Shown: piece by piece, positions 831 through 57,757 of the stretch
How the letters are laid out: each line of letters begins with the position of its first letter
Position numbering within the stretch: position 1 is the stretch's first letter
From: a phage
Reading direction: 5' to 3' (one strand)
Sequence record: PZ564402.1
Length of the DNA: 59,352 nt
Translations under genes and position numbers: made by a program
Notes under the pieces: model-generated
What the model saw: the letters and a program-made list of their open reading frames with translations, nothing else
The model's database searches: none
Told to the model about the DNA's origin: nothing

Positions 831-859
831 TTGACGCACGCCGCGTATATCATTTATAT
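831..859 (+). promoter_or_regulatory. sigma70-like promoter (-35 TTGACG, 17-nt spacer, -10 TTATAT) followed by UUCG-type leader hairpin
   Basis: Near-identical 47-bp copy at 57406-57452; A/T-rich upstream tract; lies in intergenic gap before 922. Confidence 0.6.
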
Positions 860-3363: not shown

Positions 3364-3375
3364 GGTGCGCAGAGC
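3364..3375 (+). other. candidate cohesive-end site (cos) 12-mer GGTGCGCAGAGC
   Basis: Exact match to the 12-nt 5' cohesive end I recall being reported for Salmonella phage Chi; lies in a noncoding interval beside direct repeats. Confidence 0.45.
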
Positions 3376-3868: not shown

Positions 3869-3924
3869 CAACGGTTAACAGCACGTCGAACATACGCGAC
3901 GTGTATCAAACGGGGAAACTAAAA

Positions 3925-44990: not shown

Positions 44991-45120
44991 CCCTGCGCCG
45001 TCTTTCTGTTCTGTCGCGCGCGCCATCTACATCGGCGAGGAAGACGTGCTGACAGATGAAACCGCACGGCAGATCGCCACCCACGATGAAATCGGCGAAC
45101 GGCTATGCGGCTGGAAATAG
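44917..45120 (+). CDS. o-spanin (Rz1-like) lipoprotein, overlapping i-spanin in a different frame
   Basis: Lipoprotein signal MKSINSLLVALTICFAVSGC with lipobox-like AVSGC; starts inside the i-spanin gene. Confidence 0.55.
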   Translation: MKSINSLLVALTICFAVSGCVERINPAPSFCSVARAIYIGEEDVLTDETARQIATHDEIGERLCGWK

Positions 45121-45582
45121 TTAAATGGTCGGGTGGGTAATAACCACCGTACGTTCACCCTCGATTGTCTGGTGGTACCGCAGCGAGGACACCAGATGAT
45201 CGAGGCTATTGAAGACCGGGATATTCAGCCTCTTCGCCTCTTCCACCTCCGCGCGGGTACCTGAACTACGCATCGCATCTTCACCAATCAGCAGAACAGC
45301 GTCACAGCGGCGCATCAATTCCATCGTGCATTCCAGCCAGTATTCGTCCGGGGTCTCGCCTTCGGTCTTGTGCTCGAAGTTGGCCGTGTTCAGGTGCGGC
45401 GTGACCGGGAACATCTTATGGACGTAGAGTTGATCGACAACCGACACGGCCGTCTCTTCGGCTTTCAGGATGTTGACCGTCGTCGGAACGGTGCAGCCCG
45501 AACCGATGATGTACGGGCGGTACGGCCCGGCCAGATAGATCATGACGGGCTTGGCCGCCGGGTTACACATATTCACGTTCAT
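45121..45582 (-). CDS. nucleoside 2-deoxyribosyltransferase-superfamily protein (Ndt/Rcl-like)
   Basis: N-terminal IYLAGPY motif characteristic of this fold; last gene of leftward early operon. Confidence 0.45.
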   Translation of the reverse strand: MNVNMCNPAAKPVMIYLAGPYRPYIIGSGCTVPTTVNILKAEETAVSVVDQLYVHKMFPVTPHLNTANFEHKTEGETPDEYWLECTMELMRRCDAVLLIGEDAMRSSGTRAEVEEAKRLNIPVFNSLDHLVSSLRYHQTIEGERTVVITHPTI

Positions 45583-45863
45583 ATTAAGCCTCGGTTATAT
45601 TCGTCCACGTATTTTTCATTTTCAGGAGATCGGTCTACCTGATTAATCTCGCTGAACTCGCAGGAAATAATATCCCCGCTAGGCAGGCGCACCCGCCAAA
45701 AAATATCCTCTTCACGCGGCCCGGTGCGTTCCCATTCGAGCACGGTTCCGTAGTATTTATGCCCGTTGAATCGGTCAGTGAAATGCACGGAGTCGCCTTT
45801 AATCGGCCAGCCCGGTTTTATCTTGGCACGGTATTTCCGTTTTATAGCCTCAACGTCGATCAT
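45579..45863 (-). CDS. hypothetical early protein (94 aa)
   Basis: ORF coupled to neighbours on minus strand. Confidence 0.45.
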   Translation of the reverse strand: MIDVEAIKRKYRAKIKPGWPIKGDSVHFTDRFNGHKYYGTVLEWERTGPREEDIFWRVRLPSGDIISCEFSEINQVDRSPENEKYVDEYNRGLI

Positions 45864-45938
45864 ACTTCATCATCCTCCAAGTCTTCGTCAAAAAGGTCGG
45901 ACTGGCCGCCGGAAAAGCTGACGACAAGCGGCGCTTTG

Positions 45939-46652
45939 TTAGTTGGCATCGGTTGAGTCCTCGCATAATGGTATGAAGTCCTTCGGGCCGTCGCCTGAAC
46001 CGGGGAAGCGCCGGAAGACCATTTCGTCTTCGATGGTCAGTTTATCCTTGCTGTTCCCGCGACGATAGAAGTCGGCCATGCCGCTGCCGTACGTGCGGTC
46101 AATCCCGGCACCATACGGATCTTGCGGGCAAAGTTCCAGCGCCAGCACTTCTCGCCAGTCCGGCCGATCGATACGGCAGACCGTACGATAGTTGTTCGAC
46201 ACCCGGCAGTATCCCGAGGCAATCAGCGTTTCCACCAACCGGGCCTGTTCCTTGCCACGCATCGTTTTCGCGCGCTTGACGTCCTCTTTCCTTGCCCGGG
46301 CGAAATACTCCCGCGAGAATCGGCTACCGACGTTCTCCGCGAAGATGCGCAGGTCTTTGATGACCATGCCCCATTTCCGGCGGCTACCCTCGTCCACGTA
46401 GCGGATGGCTCCGGCGTAGCGAAGCAGCATGGCGTCGGTCAGGCGGGCATTCTTCGGGTCTTTGGCTTTCCACCAGCCGTACACTTCCACCATGCGGGCC
46501 ATCGCCTTGTCGCTATACCACAACTCGGCGTGGCTGGTGGGCGAGTATTCCGGGTAAGACTTTGCGCCGCCGTCAAACGCCCGGTAGCAGTACCAGATCC
46601 CGCCGCTGTACTGGAAGTGCGGTATCTTGTGAAGTTCTTTCATCGTAGCCAT
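45939..46652 (-). CDS. hypothetical early protein (start at internal ATG MATMKEL)
   Basis: GAGGA RBS before ATG 46652; ATGA-type overlap with upstream gene. Confidence 0.5.
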   Translation of the reverse strand: MATMKELHKIPHFQYSGGIWYCYRAFDGGAKSYPEYSPTSHAELWYSDKAMARMVEVYGWWKAKDPKNARLTDAMLLRYAGAIRYVDEGSRRKWGMVIKDLRIFAENVGSRFSREYFARARKEDVKRAKTMRGKEQARLVETLIASGYCRVSNNYRTVCRIDRPDWREVLALELCPQDPYGAGIDRTYGSGMADFYRRGNSKDKLTIEDEMVFRRFPGSGDGPKDFIPLCEDSTDAN

Positions 46653-46653
46653 G

Positions 46654-47106
46654 TCAGTCCTCGGCCAGTTCAGGGTTAATGGTAAACCGCAGTCCGTACT
46701 TAAAGTCGTTTTTGGACAGCAGGCTGATGATTTCATCCGAGTTTTCTATCTTGATGCCCTTCTCGGCGAGCGCTTCCCTCGGCGGGAGCCACGGATCGAT
46801 AGTCAACTGGCGGTATACCGGGGTCATGTGGATCGGCGACCCATCGCGAACACTGTACGGCAGCGGGTATGGTCGGCCAGAACGAGGGTGGATACGTCGC
46901 GGCCCGGGCGAACGGGTAATGCCGTAGAACGATGCCATAACGTCGGTCAGCCCTTTGCCGTACATCGAGCGCACCACCTCTTCGTCGCCTTTCAGCAGGC
47001 GTTTGACGATGTGCCGGACGAACGGGTACAGATCCCACTTCGCGCGTTGGCGGATGACCGAAGCCTGTCGGCGGGCCTCCTGCTGGAATAATGATCCGCG
47101 TTTCAT
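46654..47106 (-). CDS. hypothetical early protein (150 aa)
   Basis: Coupled ORF. Confidence 0.45.
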   Translation of the reverse strand: MKRGSLFQQEARRQASVIRQRAKWDLYPFVRHIVKRLLKGDEEVVRSMYGKGLTDVMASFYGITRSPGPRRIHPRSGRPYPLPYSVRDGSPIHMTPVYRQLTIDPWLPPREALAEKGIKIENSDEIISLLSKNDFKYGLRFTINPELAED

Positions 47107-47450
47107 TTTTTGTACTTATCCTCTTCGTTGAAATTACGGACAGGCACGCCGTCCCAAATGCGTACGATGCCCGGGTGCGCCTCGCGCCACGATCCAAGCA
47201 GGTGATCAGCCCACTCCTTCAAATCTTCGCTGTATGCGGACAGCAGTCGGTCTTCAATGGACTGGCGTTCCGCTGCGGACAGCGGCCCGACCTGATGGAT
47301 GATGTCAAACCAGATCTCGTCGTGGACACCGTTGACGGCCACCAGATAGCCCTTCGCTTCCAGTTCTGCGATGACGGCGTGGGTGCGGTCGGCTTTCATG
47401 CGCATGTAGTTCATGCTGCGGCCCTCCCCCATAAGATTTGCAGGGAGCAC
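47103..47450 (-). CDS. hypothetical early protein (115 aa)
   Basis: Coupled ORF. Confidence 0.45.
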   Translation of the reverse strand: MLPANLMGEGRSMNYMRMKADRTHAVIAELEAKGYLVAVNGVHDEIWFDIIHQVGPLSAAERQSIEDRLLSAYSEDLKEWADHLLGSWREAHPGIVRIWDGVPVRNFNEEDKYKK

Positions 47451-47692
47451 GGCGGCTCGTCCGGATCGGAGTAGATTTCGAACCCGGCGTCCTTAATCCA
47501 GCCGATCAGCATGGCTCGGGACTTATCGGACAGCGGATGGTCGTTGTGTAACAGCGCGACCGTAGTGGTGGTCAGCCCGGCCGATGCGGCCCGGCGGATA
47601 AGACGCTCTACCTCGTCACGTACTTCAATCGCTTCGGCGGTGTGGTGGTCGGTAGCAGCTTTATACATTTCATCGGCAGTGATAGTCAGCAT
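47411..47692 (-). CDS. hypothetical early protein (93 aa)
   Basis: First ORF downstream of promoter 47736-47765. Confidence 0.45.
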   Translation of the reverse strand: MLTITADEMYKAATDHHTAEAIEVRDEVERLIRRAASAGLTTTTVALLHNDHPLSDKSRAMLIGWIKDAGFEIYSDPDEPPCSLQILWGRAAA

Positions 47693-47735
47693 GTTGCCCC
47701 CTAAAGTAAAAATCCCCGTTGTTGCCTTCGGGGAT

Positions 47736-47765
47736 AATATAGGTTATACACGCGACGTATGTCAA
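47736..47765 (-). promoter_or_regulatory. early promoter, conserved family (-35 TTGACA, spacer with TACGTCGCGTGTA, -10 TATATT)
   Basis: One of four near-identical minus-strand modules (47.7, 50.2, 53.5, 56.8 kb), each intergenic. Confidence 0.6.
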
Positions 47766-47772
47766 ACAGTTT

Positions 47773-48285
47773 CTAAGACTTTCTTTTCCGGGCGTGCTCC
47801 AGTCGATCACCGTGGCCCTTCTCGACCATGAAATCGCGGGTCTGTTTGTGCAGGTCGGCGATCGTCTCCTTCGTTTTCCGCCAGCGCGCCACTATCCCTT
47901 CGCGCACTTCCCGGTCGCGGAACAGGACGGCCAAGTCCGTCGCGGTGATTTCGTACCCGGCGCACGCGGCCAGCACGCCTTCCTTGAATTCGTAGAACAG
48001 GTGCTGGATCTCCCGGAATTCAGCCTCGGTTACGACCTCGATGTTGACGGTTTTCCCTTCACCGATGTCGTCCTCGGTAAACAGGCACCCGGCTTCGCCC
48101 ACGGCCCGGCCATCGTCCTTCCGGTAGCGCGAGTTGCCGATGATGATCTGCGTCGGCGTGGTGCGCTCTACGCGGCGTTTCACGGCGAACGTTACTTCCG
48201 GGCTGTACCCGATGCGGATGCTGTTACGCTCCAGCGCCATGTCACCCGTTTCGAGGTGTCCAAATCTCAATTTTTTATCGGCCAT
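47773..48285 (-). CDS. hypothetical early protein (170 aa)
   Basis: ORF. Confidence 0.45.
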   Translation of the reverse strand: MADKKLRFGHLETGDMALERNSIRIGYSPEVTFAVKRRVERTTPTQIIIGNSRYRKDDGRAVGEAGCLFTEDDIGEGKTVNIEVVTEAEFREIQHLFYEFKEGVLAACAGYEITATDLAVLFRDREVREGIVARWRKTKETIADLHKQTRDFMVEKGHGDRLEHARKRKS

Positions 48286-48521
48286 TCTTCATATTCTCCC
48301 TTCGGTAATTCGTCAGTCACGTCGCGCGCGGCCCATTGCAGGAACGCTTCGCGGGTACAACTTGGATAGTGTCGGCCAAAGCCTACGACCGGGCCGTCGT
48401 ACTGGATGTGCGTGGCCCCGATGTACAGGATGGTGCGGTCGTTCACCAGTCCGTTTCGGTTCTGCGGCCGTTTTCCGCGATACGTGCGGCCCGCTTTCAG
48501 TTCTAATTCGCTATCGGCCAT
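48267..48521 (-). CDS. hypothetical early protein (84 aa)
   Basis: ORF. Confidence 0.4.
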   Translation of the reverse strand: MADSELELKAGRTYRGKRPQNRNGLVNDRTILYIGATHIQYDGPVVGFGRHYPSCTREAFLQWAARDVTDELPKGEYEEWPIKN

Positions 48522-48726
48522 CGCTGTCCACCTCGACTTCGAATGTGCGCGGAACGGTCATGGTCAGCACGTCATTCTCGGTGAACGGTGACAGCGGTTC
48601 GTCGCCCGGCTGGAAGCGCAGCGTGACGCTGCCGACGTTGTGATACGTGATATAGCGAAGGCGGAACTGCTCGCCAAAGATGGTCGCGAGTACGCCCGGC
48701 TTAACGTCTCCTGCGGCAATTTTCAT
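48511..48726 (-). CDS. hypothetical early protein (71 aa)
   Basis: ORF. Confidence 0.4.
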   Translation of the reverse strand: MKIAAGDVKPGVLATIFGEQFRLRYITYHNVGSVTLRFQPGDEPLSPFTENDVLTMTVPRTFEVEVDSDGR

Positions 48727-49016
48727 GGTAAAAGTCCTTCTGGCAAATTATCTATGTGGATAACAGTCGGGGTGTAGCCTTCCTTTATGATGCGACCTAC
48801 CCATTCAAACTCCGGCGTTTTTTGCAGATAAATCACACGCTGTTCGTCGCGCAATGACAGCGGACACGGCCACTCGCCCATGTTCCCCCGTATGATGTTC
48901 GCACCATAATGCTCCGCGATTGCGATCTGCCCCTTCGGCTCAATCTCTGGCGCGCCTTCGCCATAAACGATCACGATGTCATACACGGTCATAGTCTCCA
49001 GTCTAACGGCTCCCAT
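48723..49016 (-). CDS. hypothetical early protein (97 aa)
   Basis: ORF. Confidence 0.4.
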   Translation of the reverse strand: MGAVRLETMTVYDIVIVYGEGAPEIEPKGQIAIAEHYGANIIRGNMGEWPCPLSLRDEQRVIYLQKTPEFEWVGRIIKEGYTPTVIHIDNLPEGLLP

Positions 49017-49183
49017 TGGCCGTCTCGTTTGATGTAGCAGCCGCTTAACGGGCTGTATTTGGTGGGTAGTTCGGTCTGGACGCTGACGTCGTTACACCCG
49101 ATCGCCGCGCCCACACGGCCAATGACAAACAGCACACCGCAGATAATCAATACAAACAGCGTTAGCGCAGCGATCTTCTTCAT
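48989..49183 (-). CDS. small secreted protein / putative lipoprotein (64 aa)
   Basis: AAAGGGG RBS; N-terminal signal-like MKKIAALTLFVLIICGVLFVIG with Cys residues. Confidence 0.45.
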   Translation of the reverse strand: MKKIAALTLFVLIICGVLFVIGRVGAAIGCNDVSVQTELPTKYSPLSGCYIKRDGQWEPLDWRL

Positions 49184-49193
49184 GGTGGCCCCT

Positions 49194-50168
49194 TTATTCC
49201 TTCGGTGGATTTGATTGGTGGCGATTTAGCCAGATGACAATTCCGGCAGTATAATTGATCACGCCGAGCAACTCCCTAACCCTTTGGTCATGTGTTGGCA
49301 GGTTGACACCCTCGACGACCTTTTTGCATACCTGATACACCAAGCCGAGCGGGCTATTGATCAGGTCAGAAATGGCGTTCATCGGCTGCTGGCTGAACGG
49401 CAGGTCATTCGCGTGGCGCTCGCGTCCTTTACCATACGCGGCTTGTGTCAGCGCATCATGTAGCACTTTGACTAATTCGGAATAATCGTTGCTGTCTTTG
49501 ACGTTCCGGAATTCGTACTGCCATGACCTGGCGGCCGACGGTGCAACGGCTTCCGGCGCGACGAGGGCTTCATCAAGCGGCCATCCCTGCGCGAAGGCGA
49601 ACATGATGTAATTCATCGCGTCTATGTACTGATTCTCTTCGAGACAGCGGCGGATGGCGTCGGAACATTGCTTTGGCCAGTCCGGCTGCATCCATCCCAA
49701 TTCCAGTCCCGGGTTTTTGCGCTCGAACTGAATCAGACGATCCAGCATGTATCCGAAGACCTGTTCGCAGATTTCCGCCGTGGGTTGGCTCAACGCTGGC
49801 CGCTCCAGATGGAATACCGTGACAGTCGGGTCTGTCTTGCCTTTCGGCAGTTTCAGGTATTTCTGTTCGGTATCGAGCAGCGACTGAATCAGGCCAAGAA
49901 CGTGCTCCTTCATGATCAATGGCGTGGCGTATCCGGCTTGGTCTAACCCTAACTGCGCCAGCACGGCCTTGCGGAAATCCTCGGCGTCGTACTGATCCTT
50001 GCTTTTCGGCGAGGATTGCAGGTCATTGATAATCTTCACTGCGTGGTCGCGCATATCGCCGTCGTCCTCGTAGTCAAAACTGTCCATGTTCAGCGCGTTG
50101 AGGATGGCTTCTTCAAACTTCTCGCTGCTGGTCTTTCTCAGACCGCGTTCTTTCTTCACGTCTACCAT
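49194..50168 (-). CDS. hypothetical early protein (324 aa)
   Basis: First ORF downstream of promoter 50208-50236. Confidence 0.5.
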   Translation of the reverse strand: MVDVKKERGLRKTSSEKFEEAILNALNMDSFDYEDDGDMRDHAVKIINDLQSSPKSKDQYDAEDFRKAVLAQLGLDQAGYATPLIMKEHVLGLIQSLLDTEQKYLKLPKGKTDPTVTVFHLERPALSQPTAEICEQVFGYMLDRLIQFERKNPGLELGWMQPDWPKQCSDAIRRCLEENQYIDAMNYIMFAFAQGWPLDEALVAPEAVAPSAARSWQYEFRNVKDSNDYSELVKVLHDALTQAAYGKGRERHANDLPFSQQPMNAISDLINSPLGLVYQVCKKVVEGVNLPTHDQRVRELLGVINYTAGIVIWLNRHQSNPPKE

Positions 50169-50207
50169 AATAAAAAACTCCCGTTGGTGGATTAACCTTC
50201 GGGAGTA

Positions 50208-50236
50208 ATATTAATTACACATGTCGCGTATGTCAA
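50208..50236 (-). promoter_or_regulatory. early promoter, conserved family (-35 TTGACA, -10 TAATAT) followed by leader hairpin + U-tract
   Basis: Conserved module; hairpin CTCCCG...CGGGAG then T6 before RBS. Confidence 0.6.
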
Positions 50237-50245
50237 ACGCTTTCT

Positions 50246-50932
50246 TTAAATCTCGTCCCACATCTTGATCCAGCGGTTCCGGATCTTGGCCGATACGTTA
50301 GCCAGTGGTGCGCCGATTTCCAGTAGCGTTTCACGGTCGATATACTCGTTGGGGTGAATGCGGTCAGTCGCCGGGTCGAAGATGTGGATGGCCGCGCCGA
50401 ACCCGGCCGACGTGATTTCGCTGCTGCCTTCCTTCGGCCGGAACCAGACTGGCGGTTCGAACCCGATGCGCCCTTTGATGAAGATGGTGCGCGTGGCGAT
50501 GGTGTCCGGCCACCAGCTTTCCGACGTCGCGGACTTGGTCAGCCAGATGGTGCCTGCGCCTTTGGCCCGCTCCTCGTCGGCCTTGCGCATGATGTGGGTC
50601 ATCCCTGTCAGGTGTTCTTTCCCGGCGCGCTTCTGGCTGTATGGCGGGTTAGCGTAGGCCCAAACGCGGGTGTTCGAGTCGAACCCGTCGCTGGCGTGGA
50701 TCTCGGCCAGACGCTTCGCCCAATCCTGCCGCAGCGCGTTATCTTCGGCCGTAAAGAAACGCTGGCATTTGGCGTTCTGGCCGTCGGTGAACAGGTCAAG
50801 CACGATTGGCCCGTACAGCTTGTTAATCGCTTGGAACAGCCATTCCGGCGTACGCCATTGGTCGCCGATCAACTTCGGTTCGTGCTCGTCCATGCCTTTC
50901 AGCGCGTTCAGCGCATCAACGTACTGGCTCAT
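50246..50932 (-). CDS. dam: DNA N6-adenine methyltransferase (phage Dam type)
   Basis: Catalytic NPPY motif (AYANPPYSQ) and N-terminal WRTPEWLF typical of phage Dam MTases. Confidence 0.7.
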   Translation of the reverse strand: MSQYVDALNALKGMDEHEPKLIGDQWRTPEWLFQAINKLYGPIVLDLFTDGQNAKCQRFFTAEDNALRQDWAKRLAEIHASDGFDSNTRVWAYANPPYSQKRAGKEHLTGMTHIMRKADEERAKGAGTIWLTKSATSESWWPDTIATRTIFIKGRIGFEPPVWFRPKEGSSEITSAGFGAAIHIFDPATDRIHPNEYIDRETLLEIGAPLANVSAKIRNRWIKMWDEI

Positions 50933-52032
50933 TAAAACGTCTCTCCTTTCAGCAGGTCATCGGCCTCGACGTAGAAGGCTTCGTATTTGTCGGGTGACAT
51001 CGTGTACAGCGGCTGGCCGCCCGTATATTTATGGGTCAGGTCGGTGTACGTGGATGCGCTCATGTCGAGTTGAATACGGTTCGCCATGTCCTTGACCATT
51101 TGCAACGTGACTGACTTCGGTTGTGGTGACAGCAGCAGGTTATCGCACATCGCATGGATGTACGTGACGATCGGTGCTGGCAGGCCCGCCACCAGATTCG
51201 CGTTCAGGCGGTAATGCGGCGTGTCAAGGTACTCGGCGGCATGGTCAGGGTACGCCCGGAAGCCGGACAGGATCACCATGCGGGCCGTGGTCAGGTCGAT
51301 GGCCGCCAGTTCTTCCCACGCAGCGCGGACGGACGCGGACTTCCGGGTGTAGCGTACGTCATTCTGCATCGACTTGATCGTGGCGCGCAGCTTAGTCGTT
51401 TCCCGGTCGTGCTCGGTGTTATCTTCGGCGTGACGGCGGTGGGCCTCGGATAACTGGATTTGCAGACTGGTGACAGCGCTTTCCGCCGTATCGAGACTGC
51501 GGGTCTTGGTATCCAGCGCTTCGCGTAGTGCGGCCAGTTCGCCCGGCGTGATGTTGGCGAGGCGCAGCGGTTCGAAGTCTTTCAGCGTCAGCGGGCCTTT
51601 GCTGGTCATCTGCTCGGTCAGGCGCTGTATGTCCTGCATGGCGAGGCTTCCGGCCAGATCGATGCTGGTGGTGCCTGCAATCTTTGCGTATTTAGCGCTG
51701 GCACGTACCGTTTCGAGGATGGTGCTCAGGATCTGCTGGCACTGCTCGCGCTCCCACTCGGTCACTTCTGCGGCCGTTGGCGTAACCGCCGATGGGCGTT
51801 TAACTCGCGTCCAGTGAATGCGGATTTCCCGGGGCATTGCGTCGCCGTCCACCTCGACTTCATCGACTGACTGGATGTTCGCTTCCGGCGTTCCGCAGTT
51901 ATCGCGAAGGTATTTATGCGCCACGCACAGGATATGATTTGGGGATATGCCGCCTTCCTGCTCGATAGCCATGACGAGGATGTCTTTCAGGCTTTTATCG
52001 TCGGTGATGTATGTGACTTTTTGTTCGCTCAT
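50932..52032 (-). CDS. hypothetical early protein (366 aa)
   Basis: ORF. Confidence 0.5.
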   Translation of the reverse strand: MSEQKVTYITDDKSLKDILVMAIEQEGGISPNHILCVAHKYLRDNCGTPEANIQSVDEVEVDGDAMPREIRIHWTRVKRPSAVTPTAAEVTEWEREQCQQILSTILETVRASAKYAKIAGTTSIDLAGSLAMQDIQRLTEQMTSKGPLTLKDFEPLRLANITPGELAALREALDTKTRSLDTAESAVTSLQIQLSEAHRRHAEDNTEHDRETTKLRATIKSMQNDVRYTRKSASVRAAWEELAAIDLTTARMVILSGFRAYPDHAAEYLDTPHYRLNANLVAGLPAPIVTYIHAMCDNLLLSPQPKSVTLQMVKDMANRIQLDMSASTYTDLTHKYTGGQPLYTMSPDKYEAFYVEADDLLKGETF

Positions 52033-52703
52033 TTGGATGCCTTTAAAATGTTAGAGAATTCAACGATGTTGACAAGGTTATGCTGACGTCCGCTGTTCGA
52101 TCTGGCCCGGCTGGCCGTCTCCATTACCCGGGGATTCATTTCAACGCGCGGCGTGCGCCCGGTACCGTATTGATCCATGCTGCTCATGCGGTCAACGCAG
52201 ATGCTGTACATCTGGCTGGCCGTCATCCAGTTACCCATCGTATTGATGAAAAATTCCATCGCCTGCAATGCGTCGAGCGCGTAGACCATCGTGGCCGCGT
52301 TGTCCGTGTACAGCACGTACGCGCCGACGGACTGCACGACCTTATCAACGCCGCTCATGTACTCGGCGATCCACTCCGGCGGCACTGGAGGAACCGCACG
52401 ACGTTCACCGCTCGCAGGGGTACCGTACGGATAGGCGAAGGCCGGGCTGGCCGAAACGCGACGTCCGGTAGGCGTGGTCGTCACCGTTGCTTTCGGCTCG
52501 TCTTTAGGCAGATTCTGGAGGCAGGCCGGGCCGCCTTGCCAGCGCTTCCAGACCGTTTTCTTCGGCTCGTCGGACTCCGGCGCGGTGCATGGTGGTGGGT
52601 CGATGTCATTCGCGTCCCATGTCTTCTGACAGTCCCGGCAATAGAATTGGTCACTATGCTGCACGACTGATAAGTGGCTTCCGCCAGTGGCTTCGATTCT
52701 CAT
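52029..52703 (-). CDS. hypothetical early protein (start at internal ATG MRIEATGG)
   Basis: GAAGGGGAAG RBS; ATGA overlap with upstream gene stop. Confidence 0.5.
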   Translation of the reverse strand: MRIEATGGSHLSVVQHSDQFYCRDCQKTWDANDIDPPPCTAPESDEPKKTVWKRWQGGPACLQNLPKDEPKATVTTTPTGRRVSASPAFAYPYGTPASGERRAVPPVPPEWIAEYMSGVDKVVQSVGAYVLYTDNAATMVYALDALQAMEFFINTMGNWMTASQMYSICVDRMSSMDQYGTGRTPRVEMNPRVMETASRARSNSGRQHNLVNIVEFSNILKASK

Positions 52704-53446
52704 ATCTCTACTTCCCCTTCGGTTAAAATGCGAAACGCGCCGCCGCCGACTTTCCAGCCCTGCCACACGTCGGCCAGAAGCGCCGCCCGGTACTTCCGGC
52801 GGAACACGTTGTAAATCATGTCCCAATTCTCACTCGGCAGGTCAGACGCGATACCACCGCTCTCCCACGCCCAATCACGCGGCGACTGCGTCAGCCATTT
52901 CAGCGGAGGACGGGGGTAGGTGTACGGATTCGCCAGACCGCAGGCCACCAGCCCGCGTTTAATCCATGCACGTTGCCACCATAAATCGTGAACCGTCTTC
53001 CCGGCGATGAATTCTTCGTCCAGCATCGCGCACAGGATCGTCATGGCGGCCTTTTCTGCGTTCATGGGTACGCCAATGTCGTCCCAATCTTCCAGCGCGG
53101 CCCTGACGCCGTCAGCGCTGCCGTCGTCGTTGCTGGTGGATGAACGGTCATGCAGGATGACGTCGAACACCATGAACGGGAACACGACCTGTTCGCCGTT
53201 CCGCGTGTATTTCGGGTTAGGCTCGCTGAACATAGCCGAGTACAGACGGCGGATGTGGTCTTCGAGATCCGGGACAAACCCGGTAAGTGGTGCGCCGTCG
53301 TCAGCGTTGACCATTTCGAGGTCGGTGCCGTTGGTGCGGATCAGGCAGCGTGGCCCGTATGGCAGGGGGAAAACGTACAGCACTTCTTTCCCGATCAACG
53401 CTTGGTTGAAAGGCACGAATTTCATTACGTGGGTCTTCATCGGCAT
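52700..53446 (-). CDS. hypothetical early protein (248 aa)
   Basis: AAAGGAG RBS; first gene after promoter 53470-53498. Confidence 0.55.
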   Translation of the reverse strand: MPMKTHVMKFVPFNQALIGKEVLYVFPLPYGPRCLIRTNGTDLEMVNADDGAPLTGFVPDLEDHIRRLYSAMFSEPNPKYTRNGEQVVFPFMVFDVILHDRSSTSNDDGSADGVRAALEDWDDIGVPMNAEKAAMTILCAMLDEEFIAGKTVHDLWWQRAWIKRGLVACGLANPYTYPRPPLKWLTQSPRDWAWESGGIASDLPSENWDMIYNVFRRKYRAALLADVWQGWKVGGGAFRILTEGEVEI

Positions 53447-53469
53447 GACTCCTTTGTTATGGTACGGGA

Positions 53470-53498
53470 ATATTAGTCGTACACGCGACGTACGTCAA
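53470..53498 (-). promoter_or_regulatory. early promoter, conserved family (-35 TTGACG, -10 TAATAT)
   Basis: Conserved spacer TACGTCGCGTGTACGAC; intergenic. Confidence 0.6.
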
Positions 53499-53635
53499 TA
53501 ACTTTATTCGAGGCAAAAGAAAGCCCGCGTAAAGGGATTGCGGGCTTTTGGAAGGTGGCATCCGAAGATTACCACTGGCTTAAAGCGGACAACGCAGGAG
53601 CCGATAAGGAAGCACTATGCCGAGTCCGCAGTTAA

Positions 53636-53935
53636 TCATATGTCGGGGTTACTGTAAATAAGATTCCAGTATTTGTACTCCTTCAAGTCCAGTTCAACGA
53701 CACAAGGGTCATCCAGCGCGCTCAGACAGGTGCCATAGTCCTCGACAAAGACGCAGGAGGACTCCGGATGATGCAGCAGGCGCACCCGGCGGTAGTTCAG
53801 GTGCCATTCCGGGCTGAACACATGGTTCTCCGGCTGGCGTATCAGCATGATCTGGCCTGTCGTTCTGACCTGCCAGTATTGGTCTACTTGGGGCGTGGCA
53901 TAGGCTCCCATATTGTTACTCCTTTTTGTCCGCAC
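53636..53935 (-). CDS. hypothetical early protein (99 aa)
   Basis: ORF. Confidence 0.4.
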   Translation of the reverse strand: MRTKRSNNMGAYATPQVDQYWQVRTTGQIMLIRQPENHVFSPEWHLNYRRVRLLHHPESSCVFVEDYGTCLSALDDPCVVELDLKEYKYWNLIYSNPDI

Positions 53936-54149
53936 TATCCCGGTAAACGCGGGTGCCCATCTTCCCGTAGATCTGGTCTTGCAGCGTAAAACGGATGGAC
54001 AGGCGGATGTTAAGCCGATAGCCCATGCGACGCAGATAGCCGAGATCCTGCGGCTTCACGCCCTCGATAAAGAACGACTCGCCGTCCTTCATTCCGAGCA
54101 GAAGTTTTTCGTGAGTTTCACGCACGCTTTTGTCGGTAGTCGCGGCCAT
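53916..54149 (-). CDS. hypothetical early protein (77 aa)
   Basis: ORF. Confidence 0.4.
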   Translation of the reverse strand: MAATTDKSVRETHEKLLLGMKDGESFFIEGVKPQDLGYLRRMGYRLNIRLSIRFTLQDQIYGKMGTRVYRDSADKKE

Positions 54150-54151
54150 TG

Positions 54152-55225
54152 TTAAACCTCGTCGTCGTCTTCGTCGTTCAGCGTTCCGGTGTACTCAACA
54201 ACCTGCCCGGCCTCGTCCAGCACGCTGATCACCGCACGCAGGGACTTATCGAGTTGGAACAGGTTCGCCATCATGGTCAGGAACTGGCCGCCATCGGTGC
54301 CGTAACGTTCGAGCGTGGCGTCGTAGTTCGCATCGACGTCGGCCTCGCCGATATGGATACCGGACAGGATGGCTTTGTCGGACAGGCGGAAGTACACGGT
54401 GTCGATGCCCGGGCATTGCGTATCGACTTCGAGATCCAGTGCGCGGACAGTCCAGTGGCGGGACAGCAGGTCAACCACCGCCTCGTCTTTGAAGATGTCC
54501 GTGTCCTTCATCTTAACGTCGTCACCATCGTCGTGTTTCAGGTGGATAAACGCATCGCCCTTGATGCCGTCCTGCTGGCCGAGAACCGCGCGCTGCATTA
54601 ACTGGCGCAGCTCATACTCGCTCGGCAGGAGGTGTTCGACGGGCCATGTGCCGAGCGCGGTACGGATCAGCGCGCTGCACTCTTCTGCCGTCTTCGCGCT
54701 CGACGTGAACACGTACACGAACGGGGCGGACAGGATGACGTTGACGCGGGACGGGCGGATAGGCGCGTATTTCAGCATTTCCGCTTCCACGTCGTCCTTC
54801 ATCTGCGCCCAATCCTTGCGGTTCGGCTCCCAACCCTCGATCTCTTTCTCCCGCAACGCGGCCATGCGCTTCACGACTTCATTTCGTACGCTGACGCCGG
54901 GCAACACACGTTCGCGCTTTTCGATCTGGAAGACGATGGCGTTTGTCCCGGGGATGGCGAGCGCAAACTTGCTGTCAACCTCTTCGCCGTACGCTGCAAA
55001 GCCCATTGTCTTGTAAGACGCCTCCGGCGGATCTGACACTTCATGCTTTTCGAGTGCATCGCTTAACGCTCCTTTAGCGAAAGACGTCACCGCCTCTTCG
55101 TCAACGTTCGGCAGATTCAGGATCAGGCGGTGCAGCGGCTTGACCTTCTCGTTACCGTCGTTGGCCGCGTCGTACAGCGCGCCGAGGTGCAAGATAATGG
55201 CTTTCTCATAACCCTTGATTTTCAT
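54152..55225 (-). CDS. RdgC-like recombination-associated protein with acidic C-terminal tail
   Basis: Segments VLPGVSVRNEVVKRMAALREKE and AEECSALIRTALGTWPVEHLLP resemble E. coli RdgC as I recall it; ends NDEDDDEV. Confidence 0.5.
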   Translation of the reverse strand: MKIKGYEKAIILHLGALYDAANDGNEKVKPLHRLILNLPNVDEEAVTSFAKGALSDALEKHEVSDPPEASYKTMGFAAYGEEVDSKFALAIPGTNAIVFQIEKRERVLPGVSVRNEVVKRMAALREKEIEGWEPNRKDWAQMKDDVEAEMLKYAPIRPSRVNVILSAPFVYVFTSSAKTAEECSALIRTALGTWPVEHLLPSEYELRQLMQRAVLGQQDGIKGDAFIHLKHDDGDDVKMKDTDIFKDEAVVDLLSRHWTVRALDLEVDTQCPGIDTVYFRLSDKAILSGIHIGEADVDANYDATLERYGTDGGQFLTMMANLFQLDKSLRAVISVLDEAGQVVEYTGTLNDEDDDEV

Positions 55226-55568
55226 GCTCTATGGCTCCTACGTTAATTAAATTGGCTGGTGCTCCGTGGTACATGGATTGCGCTGCATGGAACATCGCGG
55301 CGCGTAGTGCTTCTTTGGCCGCCCGAAGGCCCGCCATTGATTCAGCGTACTGGTCGCTGACCGTGTTATACGCCGCCTCGTCGTTGTCCAGCGTGGCGAG
55401 GTCGAGCATTTTGGTACTATGGGCCTGCACGTCGTCTTCCATGTCCTTGAAAAACGTCTCAAGGGCAGACAGTTTGCAGGTGATTTGGTCTAACCGGACT
55501 TTGCGCAGTTCTTGGTACTGCACGCGAACGAATTCAATGCCTTCCACCAGCCACCTCCACGACGACAT
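55206..55568 (-). CDS. hypothetical early protein (120 aa)
   Basis: ORF. Confidence 0.4.
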   Translation of the reverse strand: MSSWRWLVEGIEFVRVQYQELRKVRLDQITCKLSALETFFKDMEDDVQAHSTKMLDLATLDNDEAAYNTVSDQYAESMAGLRAAKEALRAAMFHAAQSMYHGAPANLINVGAIEHENQGL

Positions 55569-55869
55569 TCTGCACTTCCGGGCATGGCATATTCGTCATG
55601 GCCCAATCCAGAAACTTCACGATGTACATGCGCATGGCCGCACATTCGTCCGCGCCACGGGCCTTGCCGTGCTTCGCGATGGCCGGGTCGCCGGACTGAT
55701 AGAAGGTCACGCGGTGATTCGTGGCAGACGACACCTTGATCCCGGTGTGCGTGGCGTGGATGGTCACGCTGTAGATCCGCTCGATAGCGCGGAACGCCGG
55801 GACGACGTCGATGCGGCCTTTCGGGTGCATGGCGTTGTTCACCATCAACGCGGTATTAGTCGGCTGCAT
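55534..55869 (-). CDS. hypothetical early protein (111 aa)
   Basis: ORF. Confidence 0.4.
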   Translation of the reverse strand: MQPTNTALMVNNAMHPKGRIDVVPAFRAIERIYSVTIHATHTGIKVSSATNHRVTFYQSGDPAIAKHGKARGADECAAMRMYIVKFLDWAMTNMPCPEVQNVVVEVAGGRH

Positions 55870-56296
55870 TCAGCGGTTCCTCTTTCAGACGGTAGGTGAT
55901 GGTGTCCTGGCGAGTCGCGTCGATTTCCAGTTCAGGCATCTGCCCGGTGATCAGGCGGGACGGCGTCAGCACGGCGGTGCGCAGGCCGTTCTCGAACATG
56001 ATGTTGGCCGCCGTGACCAGCGAAATGCTTTCGATATGGTCTTGGGTCTGGTCGAGGCGGCGCTGTAGCAGTTCTACCTTCTCGGCGTTCTCGTCCGGAA
56101 GGTCGAAGGCGGCACGCAGCCCGGCGATCAATGCGATGGCGTCCGCGCGGGTCAGGGGGGTGGCGATCTCGGTGTCACCGTTGTCCTTCTCGATGTAGAT
56201 CTCGCCCTCTTTTTGGCCGGGCTTCTTATAGATAAAGGCCGTACGGGCAATGTCGCGTACCGGACTCAGTTCAATAGGGTGGTGCGTTGTTTTCAT
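55856..56296 (-). CDS. hypothetical early protein (146 aa)
   Basis: ORF. Confidence 0.45.
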   Translation of the reverse strand: MKTTHHPIELSPVRDIARTAFIYKKPGQKEGEIYIEKDNGDTEIATPLTRADAIALIAGLRAAFDLPDENAEKVELLQRRLDQTQDHIESISLVTAANIMFENGLRTAVLTPSRLITGQMPELEIDATRQDTITYRLKEEPLNAAD

Positions 56297-56367
56297 CGGT
56301 GTGCGTCCTATAGGGTGTCAGGTCAAAAGGGTGGTACGCCATTTTTCAGGCGTGCCGTCCTACGTTT

Positions 56368-56739
56368 TTAAACTTCGTCGTCGTCCGCGACGTCGGTGGC
56401 CGTACAGGTTACGACGGCCTGAATGAACATGCGGCCAGACGGGTAAGTCACCAGCGCGGACTCCATGCTGAACCGTTGGCCGTGGTGCTTCATGGCATTC
56501 CGGATGGAGGAATTTAGGCTGGCCCGCATCTTCGCTTTGAGGGCATTGGCCTCGTCCTGTACCTGCGAAAGCGTACGGTCAAGCGGGAGTTCTTGGGACA
56601 GGGTGTACACGCCACCGACTTCCAGCGCAATGAGGTTCCCCACGACGCTGTACACGCGCACGCGTGACGGCAGTTCAACATCCGGCTCGGTCGTCATCAT
56701 TGCGCCAGTCAGTTCGGCCGGGCTTAGTTCTTTGCTCAT
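56368..56739 (-). CDS. hypothetical early protein with acidic C-terminus (123 aa)
   Basis: GGAG RBS; first gene after promoter 56782-56810; ends DVADDDEV. Confidence 0.5.
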   Translation of the reverse strand: MSKELSPAELTGAMMTTEPDVELPSRVRVYSVVGNLIALEVGGVYTLSQELPLDRTLSQVQDEANALKAKMRASLNSSIRNAMKHHGQRFSMESALVTYPSGRMFIQAVVTCTATDVADDDEV

Positions 56740-56781
56740 TGGGATGGCTCCAGTTGGTTCGTTAAATGTTACGTTCGGAGA

Positions 56782-56810
56782 ACAATAGTTCTACACGCGA
56801 CGTATGTCAA
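56782..56810 (-). promoter_or_regulatory. early promoter, conserved family (-35 TTGACA, -10 TATTGT)
   Basis: Conserved spacer TACGTCGCGTGTAGAAC; drives leftward early operon. Confidence 0.55.
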
Positions 56811-56871
56811 TTCATTTCATCCGGCAATTATGATGACCGGGCGAAACTCCAGTTTAGTTTCTGTCGGCGAG

Positions 56872-57100
56872 GTTTCCGAAGTAAGACCCGGCGTCGCGGG
56901 GCCGAGCGGGGGCAGGCTGACTTTTTCGAGTAAGCCCGGAACGCCAACCCTTCCGTCGGCCAGCTTTTTCAAGTAAGCCGGACAGCCGGGTGAAATTGGC
57001 CCGACGCTGGTGGATAAAAACCGCAACCGGGTAGGTTTTTGAAGTAAGGACTGGCGCAGTCGTTCAAAAATTTTGGGCAGGCTAGGTTTTTCAAGTAAGC
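56872..57100. repeat. five iteron-like direct repeats, consensus (G)GTTTTTCAAGTAAGCCCGG
   Basis: Copies near 56872, 56921, 56964, 57033, 57083 in the 600-bp noncoding gap between divergent early promoters. Confidence 0.65.
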
Positions 57101-57405
57101 CCGTCGGAAATTTTTGTAGAGAATGTCAGGCCCGGCGCGGCCCGGCGTCATGGTGTGCAGCCGTTTTTGGTGGGATTTTGTACAAATCGTTATAAATCAA
57201 TGACTTAACCTATGCGCCGATCGACCTGTTTTGGCCCGGTTATCGTGGATTTTTCGTATAGAATTCAAGGGTTTAGGACGTGGCGCCGCGTGCCGTTTGG
57301 CGGTGTGCCGGGGCGGGGGCCGTGGGGCGCGGCGGTGCAATGCGGCCCGGCGTGGCGGTCGGTGGCGCTTTTATGTGCGGTTACTCAAATAATATGAAAA
57401 AAGAT

Positions 57406-57434
57406 TTGACGCACGCCGCGTATATCAATTACAT
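57406..57434 (+). promoter_or_regulatory. sigma70-like promoter (-35 TTGACG, 17-nt spacer, -10 TTACAT) with UUCG leader hairpin
   Basis: 47-bp near-identical copy of promoter at 831; upstream A-tract. Confidence 0.6.
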
Positions 57435-57499
57435 TTGAATTCCCTTCGGGGGACGGGGCAAAAAGTCCCGGCGATAAACCAACTTAATGAGGTGTCACG

Positions 57500-57757
57500 A
57501 TGGAAAAGGTATATAACGCGATCAAGGGTCAAACGTTGCAACATTGGTTAACGATTGCCATCAAGCGCGACGAAAACGGCGGCGCTACGGTCGAACTACG
57601 CAGCACGATCCACGTTAACAAGGTTAGCCCGGTGTCGTTTTCATGGGGTAAGGAATATAGCGACGCGGATATTCTGAATGATGCCGATTTATTACGCGTC
57701 ATTTATCAGAAGTATGGACACGAAATTTTCACCGCTGATTTTACACGTAACATTTAA
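57500..57757 (+). CDS. hypothetical early protein (85 aa)
   Basis: First ORF after promoter 57406. Confidence 0.5.
   Translation: MEKVYNAIKGQTLQHWLTIAIKRDENGGATVELRSTIHVNKVSPVSFSWGKEYSDADILNDADLLRVIYQKYGHEIFTADFTRNI

Follow-up and report, generated by a model that had tools for sequence, protein, structure and literature searches.

A leftward non-structural arm of a Chi-like siphovirus: mostly conserved core genes, probably for DNA transactions rather than anti-defence

Background

Salmonella phage Chi (KM458633 / NC_025442), iEPS5, SPN19 and ECO103 4-12-1 carry the closest described counterparts of the gene block analysed here, which occupies positions 45121-56739 of the phage sequence record PZ564402.1 (the window, that is, the whole stretch of 59,352 nucleotides). 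The window is the complete genome of a Chi-like siphovirus (Chivirus, Casjensviridae), and the source of the block is a flagellum-dependent Chi-like phage. Gene order, strand and promoter positions are the same in the four described blocks and in the interval, with a nucleotide identity of 93-96% and most proteins 70-100% identical, and on a gene-for-gene map against Chi gp41-62 the interval equals Chi genes 41-62. The block is already catalogued, its "function unknown" label dating from 2013-2015, and as a gene block it adds little to existing knowledge. If its genes are numbered g1 to g23 in the leftward direction, the phage studied here differs from the Chi-type blocks in having the rare g14 cassette, the long form of g12 with 324 amino acids (aa), and g22 along with a deleted NinC-like gene where Chi has an intact gp42.

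Accessory ("moron" or anti-defence) hot spots are a familiar concept in the T-even, T7-like and BASEL coliphages. Among T7 proteins, gp2.5 and gp4 have similar acidic tails, that of gp4 ending in Phe. The tails of T7 gp2.5 and of the Enc34 protein that binds single-stranded DNA (the SSB) are contact points for replisome proteins, including polymerase/helicase, and the T7 gp2.5 tail competes with single-stranded DNA (PMC5686142, PMC10359462). Bacterial RdgC forms ring-shaped dimers, binds DNA without specificity and holds RecA in check (PMC11077077). EcoRI restricts Chivirus LuPh5 10^5-10^6-fold and AbiK does so 10-100-fold, and six other systems have no effect on it; the BASEL and Durham coliphage panels, on which much defence work is done, do not include the Chi-like group (PMC12671086).

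Conservation and selection across the interval

Most genes of the interval are genus-core, and about half of them are family-core in conserved order. On comparing seven Chiviruses, 20 of the 23 proteins were found in all of them at 70-100% identity (g1 is 99-100% identical). A cross-genus comparison with Redjacvirus, Enchivirus and Yonseivirus showed a conserved order, at 21-75% aa identity, for g1-g9, the Dam gene (g11), g12 in its C-terminal domain, and g21 in these three genera, where g13-g20, g22 and g23 are patchy. DUF7609, the domain of g1, is found across the family, and the RdgC gene (g5) with g6 directly downstream is also present in Pseudomonas and Achromobacter members. The ratio of non-synonymous to synonymous substitution (dN/dS) lies between 0.00 and 0.27 for all 20-21 genes that could be tested with orthologues in BP12C, STP-3 or ER24, and therefore the interval genes are real and constrained. 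We read the interval as the leftward non-structural arm of the phage, mostly conserved core, which would be DNA-transaction rather than anti-defence machinery, and put the probability of this reading at about 0.6.

The original prediction had instead taken the whole region for an early host-takeover/anti-defence reservoir, in which most of the small proteins would inhibit immunity or shut off the host, and had called it ORFan-rich. The latter description does not hold, since 22 of the 23 proteins fall in existing PHROG families, almost all of them labelled "unknown function", and 12 are syntenic across four genera. That these 12 keep their order in genera infecting different hosts, that 20 of 23 genes occur in all seven Chiviruses, and that purifying selection acts throughout all speak against such a reservoir, which we consider unlikely.

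The boundaries proposed for the region are exact: the start codon of its first gene is at 56739, and its last gene stops at 45121. All 23 genes lie on the minus strand, and with one gene remnant of 29 codons they replace the earlier figure of about 25. The tight coupling that had been noted was confirmed: coding density in the interval is 96.7%, and 15 of the 22 gene junctions overlap or are at most 4 nt apart, many of them as ATGA overlaps. The proteins range from 64 to 366 aa, so that "small" suits the median of 123 aa and fails for seven genes of 224-366 aa. Apart from the gaps that hold promoters there are two others, one at g1/g2 with a conserved hairpin and one at g21/g22 with the gene remnant. 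The genes are as follows.

g1 (Chi gp62): 56368..56739, minus strand, 123 aa, DUF7609 (Pfam), acidic ...DDDEV C-terminus
g2 (Chi gp61): 55856..56296, minus strand, 146 aa, PHROG 7942, 39-42% identical in three other genera
g3 (Chi gp60): 55534..55869, minus strand, 111 aa, PHROG 7734, no Pfam match, 40-51% identical across genera
g4 (Chi gp59): 55206..55568, minus strand, 120 aa, PHROG 7965, 31-39% identical across genera
g5 (Chi gp58): 54152..55225, minus strand, 357 aa, RdgC-like, ...DEDDDEV tail, 58-65% identical across genera
g6 (Chi gp57): 53916..54149, minus strand, 77 aa, basic, PHROG 7200, always follows the RdgC gene
g7 (Chi gp56): 53636..53911, minus strand, 91 aa, PHROG 7587 match from residue 9 of a longer open reading frame (ORF), 47-55% identical across genera
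g8 (Chi gp55): 52700..53446, minus strand, 248 aa, family-core, 47-51% identical across genera
g9 (Chi gp54): 52029..52703, minus strand, 224 aa, PHROG 8641, ATGA overlap with g8, 21-35% identical in Redjacvirus and Enchivirus
g10 (Chi gp53): 50932..52032, minus strand, 366 aa, PHROG 8386
g11 (Chi gp52): 50246..50932, minus strand, 228 aa, predicted orphan Dam-type N6-adenine methyltransferase, 62-75% identical across genera
g12 (Chi gp51): 49194..50168, minus strand, 324 aa, variable N-terminal region and conserved C-terminal helical domain
g13 (Chi gp50): 48989..49183, minus strand, 64 aa, PHROG 9067, 52-55% identical in two other genera
g14: 48723..48992, minus strand, 89 aa, rare accessory cassette, no PHROG or Pfam match
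g15 (Chi gp49): 48511..48726, minus strand, 71 aa, PHROG 8705, genus-core
g16 (Chi gp48): 48267..48521, minus strand, 84 aa, variable
g17 (Chi gp47): 47773..48285, minus strand, 170 aa, PHROG 9072
g18 (Chi gp46): 47411..47692, minus strand, 93 aa, PHROG 3012, 44% identical in Enc34
g19 (Chi gp45): 47103..47414, minus strand, 103 aa, PHROG 9301 match from residue 13 of a GTG ORF
g20 (Chi gp44): 46654..47106, minus strand, 150 aa, basic, PHROG 8264, 29-35% identical in two other genera
g21 (Chi gp43): 45939..46652, minus strand, 237 aa, basic, family-core, PHROG 8098 match from residue 29 of a longer ORF, 38-46% identical in three genera
NinC-like remnant (Chi gp42): 45860..45949, minus strand, 29 codons, in-frame internal deletion
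g22: 45579..45863, minus strand, 94 aa, variable, 54-62% identical in Enc34 and PibeRecoleta
g23 (Chi gp41): 45121..45582, minus strand, 153 aa, Ndt-superfamily, DUF7768, PHROG 355

An acidic C-terminal tail shared with replication and packaging proteins

The pattern [DE][DE][DE]V closes 9 of the 74 proteins of phage Chi, where 0.02 would be expected (binomial P about 1e-21); the Chi proteome contains it 14 times in all, and in 9 of these cases it is C-terminal. The carriers are the primase, gp4, the exonuclease, the Gp2.5-type SSB, TerS, gp18, NinC-like gp42, RdgC and the DUF7609 protein. In the window the tail-bearing genes end at 56368, 54152, 4299, 9543, 10194, 14667, 21852 and 7818, to which the remnant ending at 45860 may be added. 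Both g1 and g5 end in ...DDDEV, and looser forms of the tail are seen in Dam (WDEI) and in g8 (EVEI; ...EGEVEI here and EEDVEI in the family consensus). The Enc34 orthologues of the carriers have the tail as well. Within the g1 family DDEV is conserved in 12 of 14 sequences, and the linker preceding it varies in length and sequence. In relatives the RdgC tail takes the form DDEV, DDDL or DGEL. Pseudomonas phage SS2019XI has an RdgC protein, a ParB-like protein and a g6/g7-like protein that end in DDL or DDDL, and Achromobacter phage phiAxp-2 has four adjacent proteins with the endings DDEL, DGEL or DEEL. Arranged by lineage, the tail is ...DDEV in the enterobacterial genera, ...DDDL in the Pseudomonas member and ...D(D/G)EL in the Achromobacter member. 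A last residue that is switched in several proteins at once is the expected product of a shared, co-evolving receptor.

The T7 replisome tails are similar in that several DNA-transaction proteins, the Gp2.5-type SSB included, end in acidic residues followed by a hydrophobic last residue. Unlike in T7, at least nine carriers are found here, among them the RdgC-like and DUF7609 proteins, TerS and a NinC-like enzyme, and the last residue is V (L in distant genera), not F. As the g1 and g5 tails are like those of the primase, SSB, exonuclease and TerS, we read both proteins as clients of a replication/recombination hub, and their replisome-type tails are a further point against an anti-defence role for the region as a whole. 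We propose only tentatively, at rather less than even odds, that the Casjensviridae have a C-terminal docking code which ties at least nine proteins to one co-evolving receptor, and that DUF7609 could be an iteron-binding origin organiser recruiting the replisome via its tail.

Under our preferred reading, operon 1 (g1-g7) together with g8 would form a family-wide core around the RdgC-like ring-type protein. The g1 protein and RdgC would dock via DDEV on a hub shared with primase, SSB, exonuclease and TerS (the T7 SSB tail has polymerase and helicase as partners), and they would act in replication, recombination or concatemer handling and not against host immunity. The tail network and the conserved iterons upstream of DUF7609, which are described below, are the most novel leads from this analysis. 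They would be two features of the Casjensviridae: a tail through which the RdgC-like and DUF7609 proteins may be connected with those of the replisome and of packaging, and a conserved system of promoter, putative operator and iterons.

Promoters, terminators and iterons

The division of the region into four promoter-delimited blocks was borne out, as four sigma-70-like promoters are located in intergenic gaps.

Promoter P(g1): 56782..56810, minus strand, TTGACA-17-TATTGT, with ACGTCGCGT in the spacer
Promoter P(g8): 53470..53498, minus strand, TTGACG-17-TAATAT, with ACGTCGCGT in the spacer
Promoter P(g12): 50208..50236, minus strand, TTGACA-17-TAATAT
Promoter P(g18): 47736..47765, minus strand, TTGACA-18-TATATT, agreeing with the consensus at 11 of 12 positions, with ACGTCGCGT in the spacer

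Three of the four promoters have the 19-mer TTGACATACGTCGCGTGTA in common (3 occurrences against 0.03 expected by chance). A looser form of the motif occurs 7 times against 0.38 expected, always at non-structural clusters, and its copies include a divergent rightward promoter at 57406 and one at 831. The arrangement TTGACA-yACG-N4-CGT...TAnnnT also precedes the g1, g8, g12 and g18 orthologues in Enc34, PibeRecoleta and Soft despite the diverged surrounding DNA. The conserved half-palindrome ACG-N4-CGT in the spacer is probably an operator for a phage regulator. Judging from the promoter type, early or middle transcription by the host RNA polymerase is plausible, which would have this enzyme transcribe the arm from four promoters of the same class (TTGACA, ACG-N4-CGT spacer, TAnnnT); we infer the "early" status of the genes from promoter type only. 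It may be noted that the motif TTGACryACGyCGCGT is found outside the interval at 831-846 (+), 57406-57421 (+), 57413-57428 (-) and 3894-3909 (-); two of these copies head rightward small-gene clusters and one is near a cos-proximal helix-turn-helix (HTH) gene, with no obvious downstream gene.

Hairpins accompany three of the promoters and the g1/g2 gap.

Terminator of operon 1, after g7: 53512..53548, minus strand, GCCCGC...GCGGGC followed by a U-run, -14.8 kcal/mol
Terminator-like hairpin at P(g12): 50171..50206, minus strand, CTCCCG...CGGGAG-U6, starting 2 nt past the -10 box
Terminator-like hairpin at P(g18): 47707..47735, minus strand, CCCCG...CGGGG-U5, directly past the -10 box, kept across genera
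Conserved g1/g2 hairpin: 56328..56361, no strand assigned, kept in three other genera

The P(g12) hairpin folds at -14.6 kcal/mol (z = -3.8), and Enc34, PibeRecoleta and Soft have this element too. As a start about 7 nt past the -10 box lies inside the 5' arm, the hairpins at P(g12) and P(g18) would stop only read-through from the upstream operon. The terminators would in this way insulate each operon from the preceding one, and in operons 3 and 4 the terminator would overlap the next transcription start. The g1/g2 hairpin is more stable on the plus strand (-21.6 kcal/mol, with 13 contiguous pairs and then a T-run) than on the mRNA strand (-16 kcal/mol), and it may act as an attenuator, terminate transcription in both directions or mark where an antisense transcript ends.

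Upstream of the g1 promoter, at a distance of 50-330 nt, the iteron CTTACTTGAAAAA (read with the g1 operon) is present in 4-5 direct copies at 56865-57107. Chi, PibeRecoleta, Enc34, Soft and Pseudomonas phage SS2019XI have the exact 13-mer iteron array in the corresponding position, and phiAxp-2 has a different repeat there. The DUF7609 gene always adjoins the array, directly downstream. The array is possibly a replication origin or a regulator array. Rfam and tRNA scans of the whole window gave no matches.

Family assignments and mislabelled genes

That only the Dam, RdgC-like and Ndt-like products can be given a name agrees with Pfam, in which the functional families matched are RdgC, Dam and, below threshold, Ndt; the activities mentioned here are thus predicted ones. 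The match of g5 to Pfam RdgC (PF04381) reaches 67.7 bits against a cut-off of 25 (1.4e-18), with residues 51-330 covering positions 19-292 of the 298-position profile, and a sequence search of the PDB gave 2owy at 1e-7. RdgC was the sole match when all 23 proteins, concatenated, were searched against PDB sequences. By these matches g5 resembles bacterial RdgC (PDB 2owl, 2owy) and is like a ring-type DNA-binding protein of the RdgC family, from which it differs in an extra acidic tail of about 20 residues ending in DDEV and in a conserved operon with six small proteins. Pseudomonas phage SS2019XI and Achromobacter phage phiAxp-2 have a g6 homologue immediately behind the RdgC gene, and g6 homologues are also found in unrelated Proteus/Escherichia phages.

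For g11, Pfam Dam (PF05869) scores 104.4 bits (cut-off 28.1; 6.7e-30), with NPPY at residues 95-98. Operon 2 would thus end in an orphan Dam-type methyltransferase modifying phage DNA. The window has 296 GATC sites against 224-351 expected, that is no depletion, and this count is compatible with GATC methylation by g11 without proving it. The g23 protein passes for DUF7768 (34.2 bits, cut-off 26) and does not reach the gathering score of 28.8 for Nuc_deoxyrib_tr (PF05014, 19.9 bits), and is classed as a relative within the Ndt superfamily, not a demonstrated Ndt. Its SSGTRAE at residues 106-112 retains a Glu in a context like the Ndt motif S/D-x-G-x-x-x-E, and this Glu may correspond to the Ndt nucleophile.

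Of the other proteins, g2 has only a weak Pfam match to HTH_PafC (0.009, below the cut-off). Homologues of g8 form only 5 clusters in 5.8 billion proteins, all on contigs of about 60 kb; its reading as a degenerate ligase-type nucleotidyltransferase was dropped as unsupported, the family alignment having no K-x-D-G motif. Outside the genus only the C-terminal ~42% of g10 is conserved, and this gene has the highest dN/dS of the region (0.24-0.27). In g12 the C-terminal domain has an invariant GKGRERHAND motif, and the N-terminal region varies strongly in length and sequence among relatives; within the genus the protein is 70-98% identical and occurs in forms of 272 and 324 aa. Its AlphaFold2 (AF2) model, built from a 39-sequence alignment, has a mean confidence score (pLDDT) of 54 and is confident only for residues 220-320, a C-terminal four-helix domain. 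A MazG-like nature of this domain was a guess left without support by Foldseek against the PDB. The g13 protein has one N-terminal transmembrane or signal segment (best 19-aa hydropathy window 2.95).

Several labels on these genes in public records had to be rejected. The ThyX label of g17 comes only from PHROG 9072, as no Pfam Thy1 match (PF02511) was found at E <= 0.1 and the RHR motif is missing. The RefSeq label of g11 as a PAPS reductase is an artefact of a mixed PHROG, Pfam giving Dam. "Holin", "tail fibre" and "tape measure" have no Pfam support for any gene of the interval, and "RecT", "holin" (for the NinC-like gene) and "pre-neck appendage" (for small proteins) are propagated likewise. 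Such misannotations run through the iEPS5, SPN19, Chi, ER24, STP-3, BP12C and 118970_sal1 records, and none of them is supported by Pfam. The ThyX label, that of Dam as a PAPS reductase, and the labels integrase, holin and tail fibre are hereby corrected.

The integrase label, placed on g3 or g4, has a wider consequence, for the block would be a lysogeny/integration module on the view implied by papers and GenBank records in which an "integrase" is annotated and Chi-like phages are described as temperate. An integrase (gp59, or SPN19 gp14) and turbid plaques are cited in PMC6631126, and several records label a gene of the block "viral integrase family 4". The gene concerned encodes 111-120 aa without a Pfam integrase or recombinase domain, none of the 23 proteins matched such a domain, nothing of a repressor or attachment-site type was seen, and Chi is called lytic in its genome paper (PMC4342425). 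We regard a lysogeny module as highly improbable.

Variable hot spots

Variability of the accessory type was found only at 48267-48992, at 45579-45949 and at the g19/g18 junction, and not across the other ~10.4 kb; the hot spots total about 1.2 kb of the 11.6 kb. At these three places the gene content differs among near-identical genomes while the flanks stay conserved. This resembles the hot spots of T-even, T7-like and BASEL coliphages, which are also short loci between conserved genes with differing small genes in near-identical genomes; unlike there, only about 1.2 kb of 11.6 kb is involved and no occupant matches a known inhibitor.

The g14 cassette, 267 bp long, is inserted exactly behind codon 2 of the ancestral g15, and both junctions retain ATGA coupling. 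The gene is absent from the seven Chiviruses compared and present in three other records and, at 52% identity, in one Serratia phage. Of about 130 related records, 4 have it. Its family has only 6 clusters among 1.84 billion representatives, all proteins of ~100 aa; a Walker A motif (GPQGCGKT) is intact in relatives and degenerate in g14. A PPR-repeat match among the relatives was rejected as a spurious repeat match. At the same hot spot g16 is absent from SPN19, BP12C and 118970_sal1, which have a gene of 252-295 aa in its place, and their protein of 71-79 aa at the g15 position matches g15 over 96% of its length. The second hot spot (45579-45949) holds either g22 or an intact 300-aa NinC-like PAPS reductase, and among the seven Chiviruses g22 is found only in iEPS5 and SPN19. 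In the remnant MPTNKAPLVVSFSGGQS is followed by DLFDEDLEDDEV, and these match the 17 residues at the start and the 12 at the end of Chi gp42 (which when intact matches Pfam PAPS_reduct); it keeps the start of the PP-loop and the DDEV tail, and its stop overlaps the start of g22. At the third, STP-3 has an extra gene of 91 aa. Alternative occupants of the hot spots in relatives are a PAPS-reductase, a DUF3268 zinc-finger protein and a weakly Toprim-like protein.

In our scheme operons 3 and 4 would hold less conserved small proteins, a membrane-anchored protein of 64 aa, an Ndt-like enzyme and three cassette-swap hot spots that keep translational coupling. A compromise, whose chance we place just short of even, is that the core serves DNA metabolism and that only g14, g15-g16, g22/NinC, the extra gene of STP-3, the N-terminal domain of g12 and g13 have to do with host interaction, counter-defence or superinfection exclusion. 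The occurrence of g14 in so few records as a precise cassette, the nature of the alternative occupants, the signal or transmembrane segment of g13 and the variable N-terminal region of g12 are in its favour. No fold or family recognised as anti-defence is seen in the hot-spot proteins, the g12 N-domain or g13, the g14 family is limited to six clusters with no phenotype attached, and neutral gene flux can also yield variability. Counter-defence functions in hot-spot genes, the g12 N-domain or other genes are possible, and the hot spots (g14-g16, g22 with the NinC remnant, g19/g18) plus the orphan Dam are the only credible candidates. The accessory-like 10% of the block is the first place to seek counter-defence or host-range genes.

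The anti-defence question

We matched the 23 proteins against anti-restriction, anti-CRISPR and host-shutoff families in Pfam and PHROGs v4 and found no match; PADLOC and NCBIfam gave none for the ten largest unassigned proteins. The sole match to a PHROG of the class "moron, auxiliary metabolic gene and host takeover" is a secondary one of Dam, to a family mislabelled PAPS reductase. Restriction data point the same way, a Chivirus being fully sensitive to EcoRI and partly to AbiK (PMC12671086); the window has 23 GAATTC sites, which are not avoided. Other Type II sites are strongly avoided in the whole window: GGWCC is found 0 times (100-163 expected), CCWGG 2 times (128-163) and AGCT 45 times (132-224), and of further sites GCCGGC, GGGCCC and CTGCAG each occur 0 times and GGCGCC and CCGCGG once each, where tens to hundreds are expected. 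Both CCWGG sites of the window, at 49527 and 55906, are inside the interval. The genome relies on site avoidance, and this together with predicted Dam methylation fits passive evasion rather than a broad protein-based arsenal against restriction.

What favours a reservoir of takeover and anti-defence genes is the strong host-type promoters, the lack of a known function for 18 of 23 products, the three gene-swap hot spots, the orphan Dam, the highly variable N-terminal region of g12 and the indifference of a Chivirus to 6 of 8 defence systems (PMC12671086). The promoter type, Dam and about 1.2 kb of hot spots are thus what the original prediction retains, and the region as a whole, with its core conservation, purifying selection and replisome-type tails, does not fit it.

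Several points also weigh against a conserved DNA-transaction arm. Its conservation is compatible with anti-defence roles and does not exclude them, some counter-defence genes being conserved themselves. Of the 23 proteins, 18 are without an assignable fold or family. Structure prediction, which had been suggested as a check, was done for g12 and g1 and gave no assignable fold for either: Foldseek of the g12 model against the PDB returned nothing with E < 1, and the g1 prediction led to no usable fold match. The presence of the tail on TerS and gp18 means that its partner may not be the polymerase, and the spacer motif of the promoters could be a promoter element instead of an operator. Apart from PMC12671086, our literature searches turned up no work on the transcriptome, gene essentiality or anti-defence of any Chi-like phage.

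Genome layout and database matches

On searching the interval against phage records with megablast, 129 matches were obtained, 91 of them at >=80% coverage and roughly 90-96% identity. Nearly all full-length matches are Chi-like Salmonella/Escherichia phages of the genus Chivirus, family Casjensviridae, and the best is Escherichia phage ECO103 4-12-1 with 95.9%. The layout taken from annotated relatives begins on the left with the primase and regulators, followed by a rightward replication module (exonuclease, Gp2.5-type SSB, polymerase, helicase); the terminase, virion and lysis genes occupy the middle and end near 45120, and the leftward cluster studied here comes next; on the right a divergent control region (56740-57500) is followed by a rightward cluster of small genes. 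At 3364-3375 the window contains GGTGCGCAGAGC, which in Chi is the cohesive end. As it is internal, the window is a circularly permuted assembly of a cos phage and its start is not a physical end. It may also be noted that the OR84xxxx and OR85xxxx series include short contigs which are 93-100% identical to the interval and are deposited under the phage names "Staphylococcus", "Listeria" and "Enterococcus"; the most likely cause is cross-contamination or assembly from mixed lysates rather than a true host of that name.

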